Positions 8,567 through 53,134 of a stretch of 64,000 nt of DNA are shown here, piece after piece. The notes below the pieces were generated by a model that saw nothing but the letters and a program-made list of their open reading frames with translations, was not told the origin of the DNA and did no database searches. How positions within the stretch are numbered: the first letter of the stretch is position 1; every line of letters begins with the position of its first letter. Source of the stretch: an uncultured bacterium (GTDB taxonomy: Bacteria; Patescibacteriota; Minisyncoccia; UBA6257; GWB1-50-10); the NCBI GenBank assembly GCA_903827975.1, contig CAIKKG010000014.1, positions 52,833 through 116,832 of the forward strand, read 5' to 3'. The position numbers and the translations under genes were made by a program.

Positions 8567-10018
8567 ATGGCACGCAACGAAGTTATATTACGATTTGATA
8601 AGGTTTCCTTTGAATTTGGACACCATTCCCCCATCCTAGATGAGGTTGATTTTTCAGTTCGCGAGGGAATGAAATTTACGCTTATGGGACAGAATGGCGC
8701 TGGAAAAACAACAATTTTCCAACTGATTACAGGAAGTCTAACTCCTGAGTCTGGAAAGGTTATTATTACTAATGATGCCTCCATCGCTATTGCTCGTCAG
8801 GTAATCCCAAGAGATCAGATGAGTCTTACGGTAAGAGAATTCTTTGAAAAGTGTTTCGATAAAAAAATATATGATATCGACCCTAGAATTGATGAGGTTC
8901 TTGAGGTTGTAAATTTAAATGCTCCACATGAAAGAACCGTCGGTTCTTTTTCAGGAGGTCAGCAAGCAAGGCTTTTACTTGCTTCAGCTCTCATTCAGAA
9001 GCCAGACCTGCTTTTACTTGATGAGCCTACAAATAATCTTGATAAGGCTGGCATCGCCCACCTTACACAGTTTCTTATTGATTATAAGAAGACATGCATA
9101 GTAATTTCTCACGATGCAGACTTTTTGAACGCATTCACACATGGTGTTTTATACTTGGATGTTTTCACAAGGAAAATGGAGCAGTACTCTGGTGACTACA
9201 AGGATGTGGTAGCCGAGATTTCTGCACGTATAGAAAAAGAAAACAGAAAGAATGCTTTACTTGAAAAAGAAATACAAGCAAACAAAGATAAGGTAAACTT
9301 TTTTGCACACAAGGGAGGACAGATGAGGTTGGTTGCAAAGAAAATGAGAGAGAAGGTTGAGGAGATGGAGGCCGCAAAAGTTGATGTGCGTAAGGAGGAT
9401 AAAACAATCCGTCAGTTTTTTATTCCTTCACAGCCAGAGCTAATTGGTGAGATTCTTAATATCTCAACTGTTTCAATATTCAAGGATCACAAACCAACGG
9501 TAAAAAAGGTTAAGATTTCAATGAAGAAGAATCAGCACTTACTCCTCGTAGGAAGAAATGGAATTGGAAAAAGTACTCTTCTTGAGGCATTAACACATAA
9601 AGATAACAAAGGTTCCACAATAGCAGAGGATGTTCGTGTAGGATATTACCGCCAGGATTTCTCAACACTAAATTTCGAGGATACTGTATATAATTCATTA
9701 GCATCTGTTGCTGATAATGTAGGAGAGGAGCAATTACGATCAGCTGCATCCGGATTTCTTATTGATGAGGATATGATGAGGCAGAAGATAGGCTCATTGT
9801 CAGAAGGTCAGAAAGGACTTGTGGCATTCGCACAACTCGTCTTACTAAGGCCTGGACTCTTAATACTTGATGAACCTACAAACCATATTAATTTTCGTCA
9901 TATACCTATAATAGCTAATGCTTTAAATAAGTATGAGGGAGCAATGATATTAGTAAGTCACGTGCCGGAATTTATTGAACAGATTCGTATTGACGAGACA
10001 TTTGATTTAGAAAAATAG
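8567..10018 (+). CDS. ABC-F family ATPase (tandem ABC domains, no TMD; translation-factor type)
   Basis: Two Walker A (GQNGAGKTT, GRNGIGKST) and two signature/Walker B sets (LSGGQQARL...LLLDEPTNNLD; LSEGQKGLV...LILDEPTNHI) with a charged linker; ATG at 8567 preferred over the ORF-track start 8528. Confidence 0.85.
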   Translation: MARNEVILRFDKVSFEFGHHSPILDEVDFSVREGMKFTLMGQNGAGKTTIFQLITGSLTPESGKVIITNDASIAIARQVIPRDQMSLTVREFFEKCFDKKIYDIDPRIDEVLEVVNLNAPHERTVGSFSGGQQARLLLASALIQKPDLLLLDEPTNNLDKAGIAHLTQFLIDYKKTCIVISHDADFLNAFTHGVLYLDVFTRKMEQYSGDYKDVVAEISARIEKENRKNALLEKEIQANKDKVNFFAHKGGQMRLVAKKMREKVEEMEAAKVDVRKEDKTIRQFFIPSQPELIGEILNISTVSIFKDHKPTVKKVKISMKKNQHLLLVGRNGIGKSTLLEALTHKDNKGSTIAEDVRVGYYRQDFSTLNFEDTVYNSLASVADNVGEEQLRSAASGFLIDEDMMRQKIGSLSEGQKGLVAFAQLVLLRPGLLILDEPTNHINFRHIPIIANALNKYEGAMILVSHVPEFIEQIRIDETFDLEK

Positions 10019-10028
10019 AATAAAAATA

Positions 10029-10058
10029 AACCCCGAATTTAATCGGGGTTTATTTTTT
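10029..10058. terminator. Bidirectional hairpin terminator between ABC-F (+) and DEAD-box helicase (-)
   Basis: aaccccgaatttaatcggggtt flanked by A-run and T-run. Confidence 0.7.
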
Positions 10059-11682
10059 ATCTTCCTCCAAATTTTGCTGGCCTAGAACCACGGCTTCTGA
10101 ATCTTGGCGTCTTTCTATCCTGAGATGCTCCTGGAGCGCCGGATGTTCTTGGTGCATAAGATGAGCCAGCCCTTGGTGCTCGTGATGAACCTGATGTTCT
10201 TTGCGCATATCCCGAGCTAGGTGTTCTTGGTGCGTATGATGAACCTGTTCGTGGCGCGTACGATGAGCCAGATGTTCTTGGTCCACTTGAAGTTCTTGGT
10301 GCGTATGATGAACCTGTTCGTGGCGCGTACGATGAGCCAGATGTTCTTGGTGCATAAGACGAACCTGAAGTTCTTGGTGCGTATGATGAACCAGCGTGAG
10401 TTGGTCTTGAAGAAGGTGTTCGTGAGTGAGATGAGTTTGCTCTATCCCTATTCATATGAGGGAACCTTCGTGAAGGCGCCTGACGTCTCTCTTCGCGCTC
10501 AGGTGGAATTCCTGTTTTTACTGAAGGTAATGCTTGAGGTAGCTCAGGCAGTTTTGAAACTGGGAGTGTTGATCTAATAAGTTTTTCAATCGAGCGGATA
10601 TCATCGCGCTGATTTGGGCGGGCAAATGAAATTGCATGACCACTAACACCTGCACGGCCAGTTCGTCCTATGCGGTGAACATAATCCTCTGCATTTTCAG
10701 GAAGGTCATAGTTTATAACAACCTCAATATTACTTACATCAATACCACGAGCTGCAATATCAGTTGCAACAAGAACACGGAACCTACCATTTTTGAACCC
10801 TTCTAATGCTTCACGTCTCTGACCAAGTGAGCGATTCGAGTGAATCTCCGCTGCTGCATGTCCTAAAAAGCGGACAGTTGCTGCAATTCTTTTTGCATTA
10901 TGTTTTGTTCTAGAAAATACGAGGACTGAACCGTTGTATTCCTGCAATAATTTTTCTAAAAGTCTAGCCTTATCCTCCTGTGAAACTATAAATAATTCCT
11001 GAGTTACATCTTTTGCGGTACTACCTGAACGCGCTATTTCAATGCGAACCGGCAATTTCATGTATGTCCTTGCAATTATTACGATTTCCTCAGGCATTGT
11101 TGCTGAGAAAAGCATTGTCTGTCTCTCCTCAGGAATTGAAGAGATAATTTGTTTTAATTGTGGAGCAAAACCCATATCAAGCATTCTGTCTGCTTCATCA
11201 AGCACAAGCATTGAAACCTTATCAAGGTTTATTGTTTTCTGGTCTACATGATCAATCAATCTTCCAGGTGTTCCTATTACAATATCAGGGCGTCGCGCTA
11301 ATGAGCGAAGTTGTCGTGACATTGGCTCACCTCCAATTATTACTGATGTTTTTACACCAAGTTGAAGACCAACTGTATTCAATGACTCTGCAACCTGAAT
11401 AGCAAGTTCACGTGTTGGTACTACAATAAGACCAAGTCCGTTAGCTTTTAAAATTCTCTGTATCATTGGGATACCAAATGCGAGTGTTTTTCCAGTTCCT
11501 GTTTGTGCTACACCCATAACATCCTTTCCTTCCATTGCAATCGGAATAGCCTGTTCTTGAATAGGCGTTGGTTTTGTAAAATTAAGCTTTGCAAGGATTC
11601 CTAGTATTCCTGGAGCAATTCCAAGTCCTTCAAATCCCCTTTCGTTATTTGTCATTCGGGCACTATCATAACACATTGACAA
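10057..11682 (-). CDS. DEAD-box ATP-dependent RNA helicase with repetitive S/Y/R/P-rich C-terminal tail
   Basis: Q-motif, AQTGTGKT, VLDEADRMLDMGF, SAT, HRIGRTGRAG motifs; C-terminus is tandem SGSSYAPRT repeats. Confidence 0.9.
   Translation of the reverse strand: MSMCYDSARMTNNERGFEGLGIAPGILGILAKLNFTKPTPIQEQAIPIAMEGKDVMGVAQTGTGKTLAFGIPMIQRILKANGLGLIVVPTRELAIQVAESLNTVGLQLGVKTSVIIGGEPMSRQLRSLARRPDIVIGTPGRLIDHVDQKTINLDKVSMLVLDEADRMLDMGFAPQLKQIISSIPEERQTMLFSATMPEEIVIIARTYMKLPVRIEIARSGSTAKDVTQELFIVSQEDKARLLEKLLQEYNGSVLVFSRTKHNAKRIAATVRFLGHAAAEIHSNRSLGQRREALEGFKNGRFRVLVATDIAARGIDVSNIEVVINYDLPENAEDYVHRIGRTGRAGVSGHAISFARPNQRDDIRSIEKLIRSTLPVSKLPELPQALPSVKTGIPPEREERRQAPSRRFPHMNRDRANSSHSRTPSSRPTHAGSSYAPRTSGSSYAPRTSGSSYAPRTGSSYAPRTSSGPRTSGSSYAPRTGSSYAPRTPSSGYAQRTSGSSRAPRAGSSYAPRTSGAPGASQDRKTPRFRSRGSRPAKFGGR
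10118..10400. repeat. Coding tandem repeat (27-nt unit, with a ~60-70-nt higher-order duplicate)
   Basis: gttcttggtgcgtatgatgaacctg... repeated >=8 times; creates spurious overlapping ORFs 10050..10355(-) and 10221..10577(+). Confidence 0.85.
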
Positions 11683-11727
11683 AATAAAGCAAATATTTTA
11701 TTTTCCACCACCTTTTATGCGAAAAAA

Positions 11728-15799: not shown

Positions 15800-18304
15800 T
15801 TATGCCATAGGTTTACGGATTGCAGAATTAACCTGATCAGCATATTCTGGCGCTGACATATATGCCTTAAGACCAACTGCGCTCGTATTGTATACTGCTC
15901 CATTTGTTCCACGATATTCAAACCCATCACCCATCTGCCTTACTAGATATATTTCAGGTTTTTGATCATTCAAATATAGTGTCCTTGGCTCCCACTTTGA
16001 TATGCTCTGTCCAACGCCAGCCTGTGGAAGTTCTTGTGACTGAGAAAGTTCATGGAAATAATCCATATGACCTTCTAGTTTCGCTGTAAGTAGCTTGCCA
16101 CTCTCCTCATCAATATATCTTCCAAATGACTCATGATTCATACGACTTCCCTGACCTAGATAATCTGCGTATATACGCGCATCGTGCGAACTTAAACCAT
16201 TAAGCTTTCCCAGTTCAACAACTGAGTATCTTAGTAAGGTTGTGTCTGAGATATCCTGCGAAAATTCTCCATTAAGAGTGCCCTCGTGTATTTTGTGCAA
16301 TGTGTCAGCTAATTCAGGGTGTAATACAACGTACTTTGGGTTTTCACTTGCAAATCTAACTAGATATTCAGCACCGCTCGCATTAATTCCAGCCGTACCA
16401 TCCGTTGAAGACTCGATGCTGGCTTTGTACAAATCAATATTATTTTGTATTGCCTCTTCATCAATTAGTGTTTCGGCGGCCACCTCACCAGCAACAGCCT
16501 CACCAGCAATAACTTCAACTTGCTCCACTGGACTGTGTAGGGCCTCATACTGAATCCTATTTGATTCAAGTATGGAGCTAATCTGAGCTGTTGAAAGACC
16601 TCTTGCCTGACCTAATATTTTATCCAAATCATCCTTCGCAAACATTCCCTGAAGTTCCTTAGCTCCCCATCCAATCTTTATATGATCGACGTCTGTTAGG
16701 CCATATTTTTGAGGGTCTTCTGCCACCATGTCTTTATAGTGATCAATGACAAGTGTTCGCTGAGCCTCATTTAAATCCTTGAATCCAGGAACATTTTTTT
16801 CCAAGTCATGCTGAATAACACGCCAAACGGAATCTCCAGACTTTGCTGATGTTAATTCCCATACCTTTCCTACTGGCACTGGTTGCACATCATGCTCCGC
16901 CCTAAAATGTGCTGCATTGTTTTGGGACGGGTCGTTCGACGCGGCTGATGGATGTTCCGCATTAAAATGTGCTGCGCTATTTTGTGACGGGTCATAAGGC
17001 GCGGCTGATGGATGTTCCGCATTAAAATGTGCTGCATTAGCTACATGAATATTTGCTCTATCAGCATCTGAAATACTCACACCAGAATTATGAGGCACAC
17101 CTACTGAACTATTTCCACCAGAAGTACCAGTTGTTATAGAATCAACTCCTGAGGGTTCGAATATAGAATTGATTGCGGCCCCAGTACCAAAACCAACCAG
17201 AAGACCTGTTGCCACTGCGGTGCCGACGCGTGCCCACTTATATTTTGATTTAATCTTTTTTTCCTTTTCTCTAATCTCCTCATCGAGTTCTTGTGTTCTT
17301 GCAAGATTCATCTCTGTGAGCAATGCAAAATTTTCCATAATTGCAAGATTTATTAACTCGCTATTTTCTCCCAATGCGAATTCCCCACCAGCAATTACAC
17401 CGCTTCGCATCTTTTCAAGACTCTTTTTTTCAGCAGTGTCCAAAAGTTTTTCACTCACATATTTTTGAATAAGGCCTGATGCGGTAGCTCCAAAAAGACC
17501 CCTGACCATTCTTAACCCAAGAGCTCCAACGCCACCAGTTGCTCCCGCGGCTACAAAACCAACGGTTGATGAGATTGCAATTCTTGCAGCCTTTGGCATT
17601 GCAATCCATTTTGACCAGGCTTTTTTTATAAGGCTAGGCTCATTTTCTTTTTCTGCTTTGTTAGCTCTCTCCTTAGCAGCGTGATTTTTTTCAAGCTCCA
17701 ACATCGACATCCTCGTAAGTTCCATCTCATACGCTGGATTTTCAACGCCACCTTTTAAGATATCACTGGTGATTTTTTCATTAATCGTATTTTCATCAAA
17801 TCCTTCCGCCTCGTATTTTTCCTTAAGAGCTTCTACCTTATCGCTCATAAGTTGTTGCTTAAGATCTAAGAGTCTACTTTTAAATTCCTCATCAATTCCA
17901 CCGACACGCTCTTTTGCATGCTCAATATCAACCTCTTTAATTAACTTTGACCATTCGGAGTCTACTGACGTGCCATTCTCTTTTGCACGACTAACAGCCT
18001 TCTGACGAAGTTCCTCAGATATTTCCTGAAGTTTACATAATGAATTCGCTTTTTCTAGTGCTTGTCTGGTAAAAGACTGATATATATTGTCAAGATAATT
18101 TCTTTGTTCCTCAATTGACTGAACCTCTCCAGCTTTCTGCTTGTCTTGAAAGGCTTTTATCTCCTCCTTGGTTTTCTCATCAATATTACTTGTAAATAAT
18201 TGCACTCCACCTTCAGACAAAAATAAGGCCGTTTCTATTCTTTCCCTTTCTATATCTGAGAGAACCTCCTCAGTCTCGTGACCGCCTGGCGTTTCTGGTG
18301 ACAT
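15800..18304 (-). CDS. Large (834 aa) hypothetical membrane protein with N-terminal coiled-coil, Gly/Ala-rich TM segments and tandem HFNAEHPSAA..DPSQN repeats
   Basis: Coiled-coil rich N-half, hydrophobic G/A-rich helices around aa 230-370, three ~20-aa tandem repeats, structured C-terminal domain; stop 8 nt upstream of hisS start. Confidence 0.6.
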   Translation of the reverse strand: MSPETPGGHETEEVLSDIERERIETALFLSEGGVQLFTSNIDEKTKEEIKAFQDKQKAGEVQSIEEQRNYLDNIYQSFTRQALEKANSLCKLQEISEELRQKAVSRAKENGTSVDSEWSKLIKEVDIEHAKERVGGIDEEFKSRLLDLKQQLMSDKVEALKEKYEAEGFDENTINEKITSDILKGGVENPAYEMELTRMSMLELEKNHAAKERANKAEKENEPSLIKKAWSKWIAMPKAARIAISSTVGFVAAGATGGVGALGLRMVRGLFGATASGLIQKYVSEKLLDTAEKKSLEKMRSGVIAGGEFALGENSELINLAIMENFALLTEMNLARTQELDEEIREKEKKIKSKYKWARVGTAVATGLLVGFGTGAAINSIFEPSGVDSITTGTSGGNSSVGVPHNSGVSISDADRANIHVANAAHFNAEHPSAAPYDPSQNSAAHFNAEHPSAASNDPSQNNAAHFRAEHDVQPVPVGKVWELTSAKSGDSVWRVIQHDLEKNVPGFKDLNEAQRTLVIDHYKDMVAEDPQKYGLTDVDHIKIGWGAKELQGMFAKDDLDKILGQARGLSTAQISSILESNRIQYEALHSPVEQVEVIAGEAVAGEVAAETLIDEEAIQNNIDLYKASIESSTDGTAGINASGAEYLVRFASENPKYVVLHPELADTLHKIHEGTLNGEFSQDISDTTLLRYSVVELGKLNGLSSHDARIYADYLGQGSRMNHESFGRYIDEESGKLLTAKLEGHMDYFHELSQSQELPQAGVGQSISKWEPRTLYLNDQKPEIYLVRQMGDGFEYRGTNGAVYNTSAVGLKAYMSAPEYADQVNSAIRKPMA
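16896..17040. repeat. 60-nt coding tandem repeat (~2.4 copies)
   Basis: gctgatggatgttccgcattaaaatgtgctgc...gacgggtc.t..ggcgcg repeated head-to-tail. Confidence 0.8.
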
Positions 18305-40183: not shown

Positions 40184-41935
40184 TTAGCTCTCAGAAACAA
40201 TACCAAGTCTTGTTGTCCCTACTTTTTCCACCATACCACTAAGTGGAATCACTACATGGAAAGCAGTTCCCTTGTTGAGCTCTGACTGAAACCATATCTC
40301 ACCTTTGGTATGTTCAATCACTGATTTAACCAAATATAGTCCCAATCCTGTACCATCTGTATCCATTTCTTTTACATTGTACGCGCGGAAGAGTTTTCCA
40401 AAAATTTTATCCTTTTGGTCTTCTGGAATACCATAACCATTATCTGATATGGTCAAAGCTAAGCTGACCTCTTTAATTATTTTATTCTCAAACTCATCAC
40501 CTTTTTGCTTCAGAAAAATCTCTATACCGATCTCACCCTTAGGTTGTGTGTATTTTATTGCGTTTGAAACAATATTTTGTATAACTATGCGCATAAGTTC
40601 TAAATCAACTACCACCGAACTAAGATTCTCTGAATATTTTTCGGAGATGTGCTGTTTCTTTTCTTGTATTTGTGGATATAGTCCTTGGATTATCTCTTTA
40701 GAGAGTCTAGGTATATCTACTGTTTCTGGCTTGATAGAAAATGTACCTAGTTCAATACGAGACATATTGAGCAATGCATTAATAAGAGTAATCATTCGCT
40801 GATTGTTTTTATATACCTCATCAAAATATTCTTTTTGTTTTTCATTTAACTCTCCAACCTCTCCCGAAATCAGCATCTCTAAAAACCACTTCATGCTTGT
40901 CGGTGGCGTTCGTAGCTGATGAGAAGCAAGTGAGATAAATTCAGTTTTTGCTCTGTCAATTTCTATTTCTTTTGTAATATCACGGAAAACATCAATCGCT
41001 CCTACTACTTTTCCATCAAGAATGATTGGTCTTGTATTTATTGCAACAGGAAAATGAGTTCCGTCTTTTCTAGCATAAAAAGTAGCAGTAGCAGTAGCAG
41101 TAGCAGTAGCAGTAGCAAGTGTAACCTGCGTTGGTCGTTTCTCTATTGGAATTCTAATTCCGTTTTCATCAAAGGATTGGACAACTTCAAACAAACTTTT
41201 TCCTCTTGCATCGCCGAATTGAAGCCCAAGCATTTCTTCAGCCGCTTTGTTGACCGTAATAATATTTCCACTTTCATCAACCGCAATAACTCCATCCCCA
41301 ATGGATGAGAGCATGGCCTCGTCCTTAGCACTTGCTTCCTCAATATTTTCTATGATTTTTTTAATCCAGGTGACATTAGTAATAATAATTATGAATAATA
41401 CAAAAATTAATAAACCAATACTAATATTTAATCTTATTTGTACAGCAGAGGTTTTTGAACGTATTAATGAACCTAGTATTGTGGCCTGATTTGCCATTTC
41501 AGATCTATGTTCCACCAACTGATTAACTAATTTAACTTCTATCTCATGTGTCTTTTGCGGGTCAGATAATACTGTTGGAAGATTCAAAAAAAGGTCACCA
41601 CCGATTTGTTTTATGGAATTATTATGTTCATCAATTAAACCAACCGATTGAAGTTCATCAGGGGCGACGAAATTTGTCTTCATACTCATAACTAGCACAT
41701 CAATATCTTTAGATGATGAAATCCATTTTTCTCGAGAGGAATCATCTGGATGTAATAGATATGCATCAAGAAGGTTTGCACGCTCGAAGATGTGGGTCCT
41801 AATATCACTAATAATTTCTAGTTTTAAAGTGTTGGCATTAGTTTGTATTACAGTAATAAATATAAATACACCTGCCAGAATCGAGACAATTAAGGAGATA
41901 GCGAAGACAATGCTGATTTTTGTTTTATTTTTCAT
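40184..41935 (-). CDS. Sensor histidine kinase (TM - extracytoplasmic ~150 aa - TM - PAS - HisKA - HATPase_c)
   Basis: 583 aa; H-box SHQLRTPPT; N, G1, G2 boxes; contains in-frame (TA)6 dipeptide run. Confidence 0.9.
   Translation of the reverse strand: MKNKTKISIVFAISLIVSILAGVFIFITVIQTNANTLKLEIISDIRTHIFERANLLDAYLLHPDDSSREKWISSSKDIDVLVMSMKTNFVAPDELQSVGLIDEHNNSIKQIGGDLFLNLPTVLSDPQKTHEIEVKLVNQLVEHRSEMANQATILGSLIRSKTSAVQIRLNISIGLLIFVLFIIIITNVTWIKKIIENIEEASAKDEAMLSSIGDGVIAVDESGNIITVNKAAEEMLGLQFGDARGKSLFEVVQSFDENGIRIPIEKRPTQVTLATATATATATATFYARKDGTHFPVAINTRPIILDGKVVGAIDVFRDITKEIEIDRAKTEFISLASHQLRTPPTSMKWFLEMLISGEVGELNEKQKEYFDEVYKNNQRMITLINALLNMSRIELGTFSIKPETVDIPRLSKEIIQGLYPQIQEKKQHISEKYSENLSSVVVDLELMRIVIQNIVSNAIKYTQPKGEIGIEIFLKQKGDEFENKIIKEVSLALTISDNGYGIPEDQKDKIFGKLFRAYNVKEMDTDGTGLGLYLVKSVIEHTKGEIWFQSELNKGTAFHVVIPLSGMVEKVGTTRLGIVSES
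41081..41116. repeat. Hexanucleotide microsatellite (AGTAGC)x6 inside the histidine-kinase CDS
   Basis: agtagcagtagcagtagcagtagcagtagcagtagc; encodes TATATATATATA in-frame. Confidence 0.9.
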
Positions 41936-42007: not shown

Positions 42008-42084
42008 TGGTGGACCTGACCGGATTCGAACCGGTGACCTCCTCATTGCAAATGAGGCGCTCTAACCAACTGAGCTACAGGCCC
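42008..42084 (-). tRNA. tRNA-Ala (anticodon TGC), CCA encoded
   Basis: GGGCCTGTAGCTCAGTTGGTTAGAGCGCCTCATTTGCAATGAGGAGGTCACCGGTTCGAATCCGGTCAGGTCCACCA with G3:U70 Ala identity pair. Confidence 0.9.
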
Positions 42085-42171
42085 AGAACCCATTTCTTGC
42101 CCCGCTTGCGCTTCGCTTCTTTGGGGTACTGAATTTTGTATTCTCTCATTGACTCGCGAACAAAATTCGTG

Positions 42172-42243
42172 TGGGCGTGGAAGGGATCGAACCTTCGACC
42201 TCTGTCTTATCAGGACAGCGTTCTACCACTGAACTACACGCCC
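42172..42243 (-). tRNA. tRNA-Ile (anticodon GAT)
   Basis: GGGCGTGTAGTTCAGTGGTAGAACGCTGTCCTGATAAGACAGAGGTCGAAGGTTCGATCCCTTCCACGCCCA cloverleaf. Confidence 0.9.
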
Positions 42244-52780: not shown

Positions 52781-53134
52781 TTATATATTGATTCCCTCGT
52801 TTCTTGCGGCCTCAACAAGTGCCTTTACGCGACCGTGATATCTGTATGAACCGCGATCAAATACGGCTGATGTTACTCCAGCTGCTTTTGCGCGTTCTGC
52901 AATTGTCTTTCCGACAAAGGCTGAACCCGTAAGTTTAGGCTCCTTCTTCTTCATTTCTTTTGAGGTTGCTGAAGCTAATGTCTTTCCTGCAACATCATCA
53001 ATGAGCTGAGCAAGCATATATTTATTGCTGCGAAATACTGAAAGACGAGGTCGCTCTGCGGTGCCACGAATACGCGCACGTGTTCGTATCGCTCTTCGCT
53101 CTCTCTTTTCAATTAATTTCTTTCTGTCGTTCAT
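52781..53134 (-). CDS. rplR: 50S ribosomal protein L18
   Basis: ..[24 protein letters not shown].. L18 core. Confidence 0.9.

Follow-up and report, generated by a model that had tools for sequence, protein, structure and literature searches.

A tandem (S)GSSYAPRT array in the basic, predicted disordered C-terminal tail of a Patescibacteria DEAD-box RNA helicase

The stretch of DNA considered here (the window: 64,000 nucleotides (nt), positions 52,833 to 116,832 of contig CAIKKG010000014.1, from an uncultured bacterium) encodes a DEAD-box RNA helicase with a long and repetitive C-terminal end. The gene is of the Paceibacteria type (Patescibacteria, or candidate phyla radiation, CPR), comes from a groundwater-type bacterium and lies between terminator-like hairpins. 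The protein consists of a two-RecA core (amino acids (aa) 1 to ~385) followed by a strongly basic extension of ~145 residues, which has three parts and is predicted to be disordered by AlphaFold2 (AF2) modelling. The reading that we favour, and consider probable on the analysis as a whole, is that a tandem array of short Ser/Tyr/Arg/Pro-rich units arose by amplification within this disordered tail, and that the tail would serve as a non-specific RNA tether and a multivalent self-association module. The helicase is otherwise ordinary; its tail is a clear case of a known pattern, that of fast-evolving disordered tails on bacterial RNA helicases.

The helicase core and its C-terminal extension

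The coding sequence, its domains and the parts of its tail are the following.

10057..11655, minus strand: DEAD-box RNA helicase coding sequence, 532 aa, TAA stop at 10057-10059 (open reading frame (ORF) listing, Pfam)
11056..11541, minus strand: RecA-like domain 1, aa 39-200 (Pfam DEAD, PF00270, E=1.7e-53), with AQTGTGKT, PTRELA, TPGR, DEAD and SAT
10621..10944, minus strand: RecA-like domain 2, aa 238-345 (Pfam Helicase_C, PF00271, E=1.2e-30), with ARGID and HRIGRTGRAG
10060..10488, minus strand: disordered basic C-terminal extension, aa 390-532 (AF2 confidence, composition)
10438..10470, minus strand: proximal conserved tail motif RRFPHMNRDRA, aa 396-406, kept in the closest orthologues with or without repeats (tail alignment)
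10144..10395, minus strand: tandem array of (S)GSSYAPRT units U1-U10, aa 421-504 (84 aa), 7 perfect cores and 3 degenerate units
10060..10113, minus strand: distal conserved basic/aromatic motif KTPRFRSRGSRPAKFGGR, aa 515-532, of pattern K/R-T/K-P-R-F-R-N/S-R-G...F-G-R

The ORF as listed spans 10057-11682 on the minus strand, and the repeat region is its 3' end. Translation probably begins with the ATG at 11655 (MTNNERGFEGLGI..., MTNNERGF), by match to the N-termini of homologues. An upstream TTG or ATG is disfavoured, because homologues mostly begin M-x-x-x-E/D-K/R-G-F; the MCYDSAR extension upstream of that start is added by some gene callers. The DEAD and Helicase_C domains both score far over their Pfam gathering scores, which places the protein in the DEAD-box family of helicase superfamily 2 (SF2). 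Motifs Q, I, Ia, Ib, II, III, V and VI are all legible (F..PTPIQ, AQTGTGKT, PTRELA, TPGR, DEAD, SAT, ARGID, HRIGRTGRAG), and the motif columns are invariant in an alignment of 123 sequences. The assignment as a DEAD-box helicase in the first-pass annotation, which had been made from the sequence alone, is thus borne out by both Pfam domains and by every canonical motif. Pfam finds nothing in the protein beyond these two domains and a weak, overlapping ResIII match.

Placement within the family is less specific. CshA, DbpA, RhlE, RhlE2 and RhlE1 rank on top in NCBIfam, all of them far under their equivalog cut-offs. The CshA equivalog (NF053631) scores 415.9 bits against a cut-off of 646, with a match limited to aa 17-385; RhlE, RhlE1 and RhlE2 score 358.8 against 743, 345.6 against 750 and 349.1 against 925, respectively. 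The DeaD/CsdA type is further off still (330.9 against 989 for PRK11634, 327.5 against 890 for CsdA). The hallmark of the DbpA/YxiN type is a folded C-terminal RNA-binding domain specific for hairpin 92 of 23S rRNA; here the DbpA match (368.4 against 524) ends at aa 382, Pfam finds no folded C-terminal RNA-binding domain and the tail is unstructured in the AF2 model. Among solved structures the core of Geobacillus CshA (5ivl) comes nearest, with E=4e-93 and a match confined to query aa 8-377. Those homologues that carry an organism name come from metagenome-assembled genomes (MAGs) of Patescibacteria: Paceibacterota, Jorgensenbacteria and Liptonbacteria. Within the 64-kb window this is the sole DEAD-box gene, and the repeat does not recur.

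The AF2 model, built from the same 123-sequence alignment, draws a sharp line at the end of the core. Most of the core has a predicted local distance difference test score (pLDDT) >90; nearly every residue of 390-522 falls <50, the means of 10-residue blocks over 391-532 run from 36 to 53, and no secondary structure is modelled past residue 381. Low pLDDT, a net charge of +21 and a middle segment that cannot be aligned, next to a core that is 60-89% identical across orthologues, together identify the tail as a basic C-terminal extension of predicted disorder.

Residues 399-532 of the tail (134 aa) are made up of Ser 33, Arg 21, Pro 16, Gly 15, Ala 15, Thr 12 and Tyr 8, the remainder including Lys 2, Phe 2, Asp 2, Glu 0, Gln 2 and Asn 2; the net charge is +21 and 2% of the residues are hydrophobic. 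The tyrosines, at positions 425, 434, 443, 451, 466, 474, 483 and 500, are evenly treated: each is followed by Ala and has Arg 3 residues downstream, the sequence being Ala-Pro-Arg for all except Tyr483 (in U8, Ala-Gln-Arg). This tail, with Tyr/Arg pairs at regular intervals, is better described as a polycationic disordered region than as either RGG or prion-like, the two terms that had been applied to it at first. Against the second stand the mere 2 Gln and 2 Asn beside 21 Arg and 2 Lys, with a net +21 in 134 aa. As to likeness with RGG/YG tails, the array holds no RGG and no [G/S]Y[G/S] triplet, the only near match being the terminal FGGR, and the tails of homologues show no enrichment of RGG (z=-0.4).

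Parsed codon by codon, the array resolves into ten units.

U1: A-GSSYAPRT, perfect core
U2: S-GSSYAPRT, perfect core
U3: S-GSSYAPRT, perfect core
U4: GSSYAPRT, perfect core
U5: SSGPRT, degenerate
U6: S-GSSYAPRT, perfect core
U7: GSSYAPRT, perfect core
U8: PSSGYAQRT, degenerate
U9: SGSSRAPRA, degenerate
U10: GSSYAPRT, perfect core

A vestigial unit, SGAPGASQD, lies directly after U10. The spacing of the units switches between 8 and 9 residues (24/27 nt), one further unit being 18 nt long, and Tandem Repeats Finder scores best at a period of 69 nt (2.8 copies, 80%), period 27 giving 67% matches. At least ten near-perfect 9-aa repeats had originally been counted over ~110 residues; what holds of that count is a tandem array rich in Ser, Tyr, Arg and Pro, now seen to comprise seven perfect cores and three degenerate units of 8-9 residue period in 84 aa (aa 421-504, 10144-10395). 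The DNA is likewise repetitive, as had been said, without keeping to the 27-nt period then described, its units having diverged mostly at synonymous sites.

That divergence is informative. The perfect units come in five DNA versions with up to 7 differences per 27 nt, all of them synonymous, and the Pro codon is invariant in 9/10 units. When the six distinct perfect cores are compared with the consensus unit, 12 changes are synonymous and 0 non-synonymous, a count that is partly circular because these units were picked for being perfect. The count over all units is free of that circularity: 17 synonymous and 17 non-synonymous nucleotide changes, where the expected synonymous fraction is 0.30 (binomial P=0.01). 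Together, the two counts show an array under peptide-level constraint in the helicase frame, and one that is old relative to the divergence of strains. Chance cannot account for an 8-mer that occurs seven times, unchanged, in one protein.

Reading frame, length alleles and relatives

The helicase frame is open through the array to the stop codon at the terminator hairpin, and all unit lengths, together with the 69-nt allele difference described below, are multiples of 3. The distal motif follows the array in frame (KTPRFRSRG..FGGR in this helicase), and it likewise closes repeat-less orthologues such as P0002 (KTPRFRNRGGGIKRFHGR) and P0009 (KPRFRSRGPRPMRSFGR), from which it follows that the reading frame is kept across the array. 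Alternative ORFs over the array (10050-10355 on the minus strand, 10221-10577 on the plus strand) are repeat shadows that have no homologues, no link to a start and no conserved terminus; of the two alternative frames over the tail, one is broken by several stops, and the other, a mere shadow of the repeat, has no start or homologue. A frameshift that would leave the tail untranslated, the contingency that the first-pass annotation had put forward, does not apply, given in-frame unit lengths and a conserved C-terminal motif after the array.

Two lengths of the tail are found. The long allele is represented by P0124 (4 contigs; the exact protein, with a caller-chosen N-terminus 7 residues longer) and P0127 (1 contig; the same tail, with one substitution in the core). 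The short allele, P0001/P0123, is found on 5 contigs and is without exactly 23 residues.

10283..10351, minus strand: 69-nt (23-aa) segment present in the long allele only; its placement is ambiguous inside a 60-nt exact direct repeat (10292-10351, 10223-10282) at lag 69

At the DNA level the short allele is represented by L001 (from an assembly in ENA) and L002 (GCA_026396755.1, which bears the label Candidatus Jorgensenbacteria). Aligned with the window across the tail region, both differ from it solely by a precise 69-nt indel. Elsewhere they differ by single-nucleotide polymorphisms (SNPs; 99.9% identity on one side, 97.3-99.2% on the other) and are, therefore, other strains. The repeat number had been thought likely to be hypervariable. 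That is not supported: only two lengths, one 69-nt unit apart, occur in about 10 contigs, and the divergence of the units at the DNA level implies that slippage is limited.

Repeats of this kind call for some caution, since a 60-nt exact repeat at lag 69 can be collapsed or miscounted by short-read de Bruijn assemblers, and one partial MAG protein, P0122, ends inside the array. Nevertheless, it is extremely improbable that the array or its copy number results from mis-assembly, or that the tail is not translated. The long tail is identical on 5 contigs and the short one is found on 5, from different samples and strains; the long allele holds a unique sequence, the SSGPRT unit, which neither collapse nor expansion can make and which, therefore, cannot be an assembler's invention; and the frame runs open to the orthologous C-terminal motif and to the stop codon at the hairpin. 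As far as the array's existence goes, the doubt about assembly that was raised at the outset is thus largely dispelled. For the short allele there are two possibilities: unequal recombination may truly have deleted the segment, or a de Bruijn assembler may have passed over a loop.

Comparison with relatives bears on where the array came from. In a survey of 128 sequences (127 homologues and the window protein) with tail length taken from one fixed anchor, the tail described here is the longest at 158 aa, the median being 52 aa, and every surveyed tail is basic, with a net charge of +5 to +25. Alignment of the tails of the nearest relatives distinguishes three zones: a conserved proximal one (LPVSKLPELP..GIPPEREERR..RRFPHMNRDRA), a middle that cannot be aligned, and the conserved distal motif; the array is located in the middle zone. 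One of these relatives, P0121, is 87% identical and has the same gene order as the window, and these two features together make it a true orthologue. P0121, P0002 and P0003 (86-89% identity) each have one related stretch (PPYASHAPRPSG, PPFASHAPRATS or RRPYAPSSPRATS) and no array. The more distant relative P0070 has a single GSYAPRPSG, and its sister P0073 has PYTPRPSG three times in tandem, with synonymous differences of its own. The most economical reading of these sequences is that a Y-x-P-R-x-S-G motif is old in the clade and underwent two or more independent amplifications. The comparisons behind this account were made directly; its direction, gain of repeats from a short motif, would be an inference from them.

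Certain short motifs recur in homologue tails more often than in composition-matched shuffles: RP.[YF] is observed 43 times against 7.7 expected (z=13.5), and PRF (z=6.7) and [YF].PR (z=3.4) are also enriched, all of these z-scores being inflated because the tail sequences are related and internally repetitive. The middle tail segment is an indel hotspot in several lineages. The near-identical proteins P0125 and P0126, from sister species, differ in that same segment by a 3-residue AAH indel (HTAAHAAHTPSAAHT vs HTAAHTPSAAHT).

Might the expansion, then, be nearly neutral, the array being a by-product of slippage or unequal recombination in a tolerant spacer between two functional motifs, where it adds length and no specific function? 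We regard this as possible, if rather unlikely. The sharing of synteny by repeat-less orthologues, the coexistence of a short allele with the long one, the presence of three degenerate units and one vestigial one, the small indels in the same segment of the sister species P0125 and P0126 and the wide variation of tail length and sequence over the family would all be expected of such a spacer. What it does not readily accommodate is the synonymous excess, in the perfect cores (12:0) as in the whole array (P=0.01), the retention of a Y-x-P-R-x-S-G-like motif as a single copy in distant relatives with independent amplification in P0073, or the enrichment of RP.[YF] and [YF].PR in tails, with the reservation already made about those z-scores.

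How unusual is a tail of this kind? An exhaustive search of 1.84 billion cluster representatives (50% identity clusters) yielded, among its best 150 matches, 146 with a recognisable motif VI. Tails of >=100 aa occur in 116/146 and of >=150 aa in 97/146, the mean net charge being +23, and several of the matched representatives have longer and more perfect tandem repeats than the window array.

P0176: 17-aa unit (NRPWENRSNDRPQSRDN), ~14 copies
P0194: 18-aa unit, ~9 copies
P0183: 19-aa unit, ~8 copies
P0134: SKPSYGA, ~7 copies
P0156: RSFGDRPA, ~9 copies

Copy number varies here too: P0281, which belongs to the P0183 cluster (>=90% identity), has ~11 units where P0183 has ~8. P0170 and P0242 are also uncharacterised helicases with long, near-perfect C-terminal repeats around Arg/Lys-Pro-aromatic motifs. 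The original judgement that such a tail would be unusual for a bacterial RhlE/DeaD helicase finds no support in these numbers, all 127 close homologues being basic-tailed and 116/146 representatives having tails of >=100 aa.

Among the matches listed in a scan of genome contigs, relatives do not exceed 72% identity, and the tails found in other phyla are basic and partly repetitive. A DNA pattern of two adjacent units has 0 matches in metagenome contigs; the single-unit pattern matches at least 120 metagenome loci, one match each and chance-like, with no second array among the matches listed. This species appears to be absent from the metagenome contig collection that was searched. With the 93-aa array protein as query, 877 word-sharing candidates were returned and none at E<=10, the protein's own cluster included, so that this result, for which composition filters are likely responsible, is uninformative as to the repeat elsewhere. 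A look through the literature on tails of Patescibacteria DEAD-box helicases found nothing specific.

Gene neighbourhood and other features of the window

The gene order at the helicase locus, and likewise at that of P0121, is HisRS, Dus, pseudouridine synthase, DUF378, ClpP family, helicase, ABC-F, SNase and thymidylate kinase. Two signals flank the helicase gene.

10022..10057, minus strand: terminator-like hairpin and T-run, starting at the helicase stop codon; 15-pair stem with 5 GC pairs
11695..11723, minus strand: sigma-70-like promoter match TTCGCA-17-TAAAAT, 9/12 of consensus; weak, the number of such sites not being above shuffled expectation

Only 38 nt (10019-10056) lie between the helicase gene and its convergent neighbour, the ABC-F gene (8570-10018, plus strand), and the gap consists of a single AT-flanked GC hairpin, AAACCCCGAtttaaaTCGGGGTTT, which could act as a bidirectional terminator for both genes. 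The promoter match sits between the terminator-like hairpin of the preceding ClpP-family gene and the helicase start. The window is 99.9% identical to L001 on the side of helicase and ClpP, whereas on that of ABC-F identity is down to 97.3%, with 20 gap openings, the break being at the repeat (~10000-10400); for L002 there is a smaller fall, from 99.93% to 99.24%. The break may mark a recombination boundary, or it may merely reflect a more variable neighbourhood.

Two other ORFs of the window contain repeats. The first, of 834 aa (15800-18304, minus strand), has a 60-nt (20-aa) tandem repeat, AAHFNAEHPSAAxxDPSQN, at 16892-17036 (2.4 copies, 85% identity), and this is a second protein-coding tandem repeat of the window; its counterpart in L001 has no Pfam hit on record. 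The other, of 583 aa (40184-41935, minus strand), reads like a putative membrane sensor histidine kinase, by reading of the translation alone, and contains a perfect (Thr-Ala)x6 run (41081-41117; AGTAGC x6.2 on the plus strand). The hexanucleotide repeat could undergo in-frame length changes by slippage. Adjoining genes for tRNA-Ile(GAT) and tRNA-Ala(TGC) lie at 42008-42243 (minus strand). Such a pair is the usual occupant of the 16S-23S spacer; no rRNA was found by Rfam, at gathering thresholds, in the 64-kb window.

Possible roles of the tail

The closest experimental precedent comes from Pseudomonas, in which the disordered C-terminal extensions of RhlE1 and RhlE2 promote the binding of RNA, its unwinding and phase separation; RhlE C-terminal extensions are clade-specific, rapidly evolving and disordered, and one of them has been found to bind RNase E (PMC11260450). 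The RhlE1 and RhlE2 proteins of Pseudomonas aeruginosa share with the window helicase a two-RecA core and a basic, disordered, clade-specific and fast-evolving extension with no folded accessory domain, and database homologues of the window helicase that bear a Joint Genome Institute (JGI) name are called RhlE. The differences are equally plain. The window helicase is from Patescibacteria and not Proteobacteria and falls under the NCBIfam cut-offs for RhlE; its tail is a Ser/Tyr/Ala/Pro/Arg/Thr tandem array and not poly-Lys or poly-Gln; and interaction with RNase E cannot be assumed for it.

A role for the tail in RNA binding or condensation is, on these comparisons, the most reasonable inference, and it is because of the RhlE1/RhlE2 extension experiments (PMC11260450) that the tail would be read as an RNA tether. 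The favoured scheme runs as follows. A pre-existing short Y-x-P-R-x-S-G motif in the middle segment of the tail would have undergone tandem amplification in this species, and the array would still be changing, unequal recombination or slippage between the 60-nt exact repeats giving rise to length alleles that differ by 69 nt (23 aa). The polycationic tail would tether a non-processive core to large RNAs, such as rRNA precursors and structured mRNAs, in a sequence-non-specific manner, and tethering would raise RNA affinity and promote local unwinding. The basic C-terminal tails of Mss116 and CYT-19 offer a parallel for RNA tethering of this sort. The spaced Tyr and Arg residues would, in addition, make multivalent Tyr-Arg, Tyr-Tyr and Arg-RNA contacts, leading to RNA-dependent clustering or condensation, with more units conferring higher valence.

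Several observations weigh against this scheme. Close orthologues exist, and evidently function, without the array, and beside the long allele there is a shorter one, so that the extra copies must be at least partly dispensable. The degeneration of three units out of ten implies that constraint is not uniform, and the synonymous-only pattern of the perfect units is, as already pointed out, partly circular. The density of Tyr is modest (8 per 84 aa), and the array is without acidic residues, which means that condensation would need RNA or another polyanion.

Eukaryotic DEAD-box helicases of the LAF-1, Ddx4 and Ded1/DDX3 type have RGG or aromatic low-complexity tails. They resemble the window helicase in placing a disordered Arg/aromatic region with Ser/Gly spacers on a DEAD-box core, which makes a sticker-and-spacer logic plausible here. 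In contrast, the window array lacks RGG and RG boxes as well as charge patterning, contains hardly any acidic residues, and is a regular tandem repeat, confined to the C-terminus, of a bacterial protein. Closer in kind, though likewise consisting of uncharacterised proteins, is the group formed by P0176, P0183/P0281, P0194, P0134, P0156 and P0073, in which C-terminal repeats of 7-21 residues are built around Arg/Lys, Pro and an aromatic residue, with copy numbers that differ between close relatives. The unit sequences of these proteins are different, mostly with acidic residues, and represent independent expansions.

The units might, alternatively, have a specific partner. CshA, the degradosome helicase of Firmicutes, provides the best NCBIfam and structure match for the core and also has a low-complexity C-terminal end (PMC11260450). 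The similarity does not extend into the tail: the match stops at aa 377-385, and the alignment ends at residue 376 of the 429-residue 5ivl chain, with nothing beyond the core. Through their low-complexity C-terminal ends, CshA and RhlE2 interact with RNase Y and RNase E (discussed in PMC11260450), which lends some plausibility to a tail in which YAPRT(S)GSS units act as short linear motifs for a ribonuclease, a ribosomal protein or a kinase, possibly phosphorylated on Ser, Thr or Tyr in the manner of RNA polymerase II's C-terminal domain (CTD). The conservation of the 8-residue core as a peptide, together with the Pro codon that is invariant in 9/10 units, points the same way. A Tyr-x-Pro sequence followed by Ser or Thr does bear a loose likeness to the CTD heptad, to be taken as a lead only. 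We nonetheless think a docking array of this kind very unlikely: the neighbouring genes (ClpP family, ABC-F) do not encode known helicase partners, and no partner has been identified; the motif sequence is not conserved over the family, in which composition and an Arg/Pro/aromatic theme alone recur; and the array is found in no other gene of the window.

A bolder version of the favoured scheme would make Y-x-P-R-x-S-G an ancestral functional motif of Paceibacteria helicase tails, amplified repeatedly and, in different lineages, independently to set the valence and the RNA-clustering threshold, with the 69-nt alleles serving as a population-level tuning knob, for temperature, for example. This we consider distinctly doubtful. 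The helicase may possibly be the main or only DEAD-box helicase of a very small cell. More speculative still is a form of this bolder version in which the Ser/Thr/Tyr-rich units would be phosphorylated, as in the CTD, and clustering thereby switched.

Such tails, being common in bacterial DEAD-box helicases, give annotators no reason to flag a gene as exceptional. What this locus offers is a clean natural series, in which sister species have the motif 0-1 times and strains of a single species differ in having the longer array or the shorter (-23 aa); conserved motifs frame the array on both sides, and there is an independent, related amplification in a distant relative. The CPR is, to our knowledge, a group with almost no biochemical data. 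If the tail does control RNA tethering or condensation, these natural variants would allow a direct test of valence in a CPR protein.

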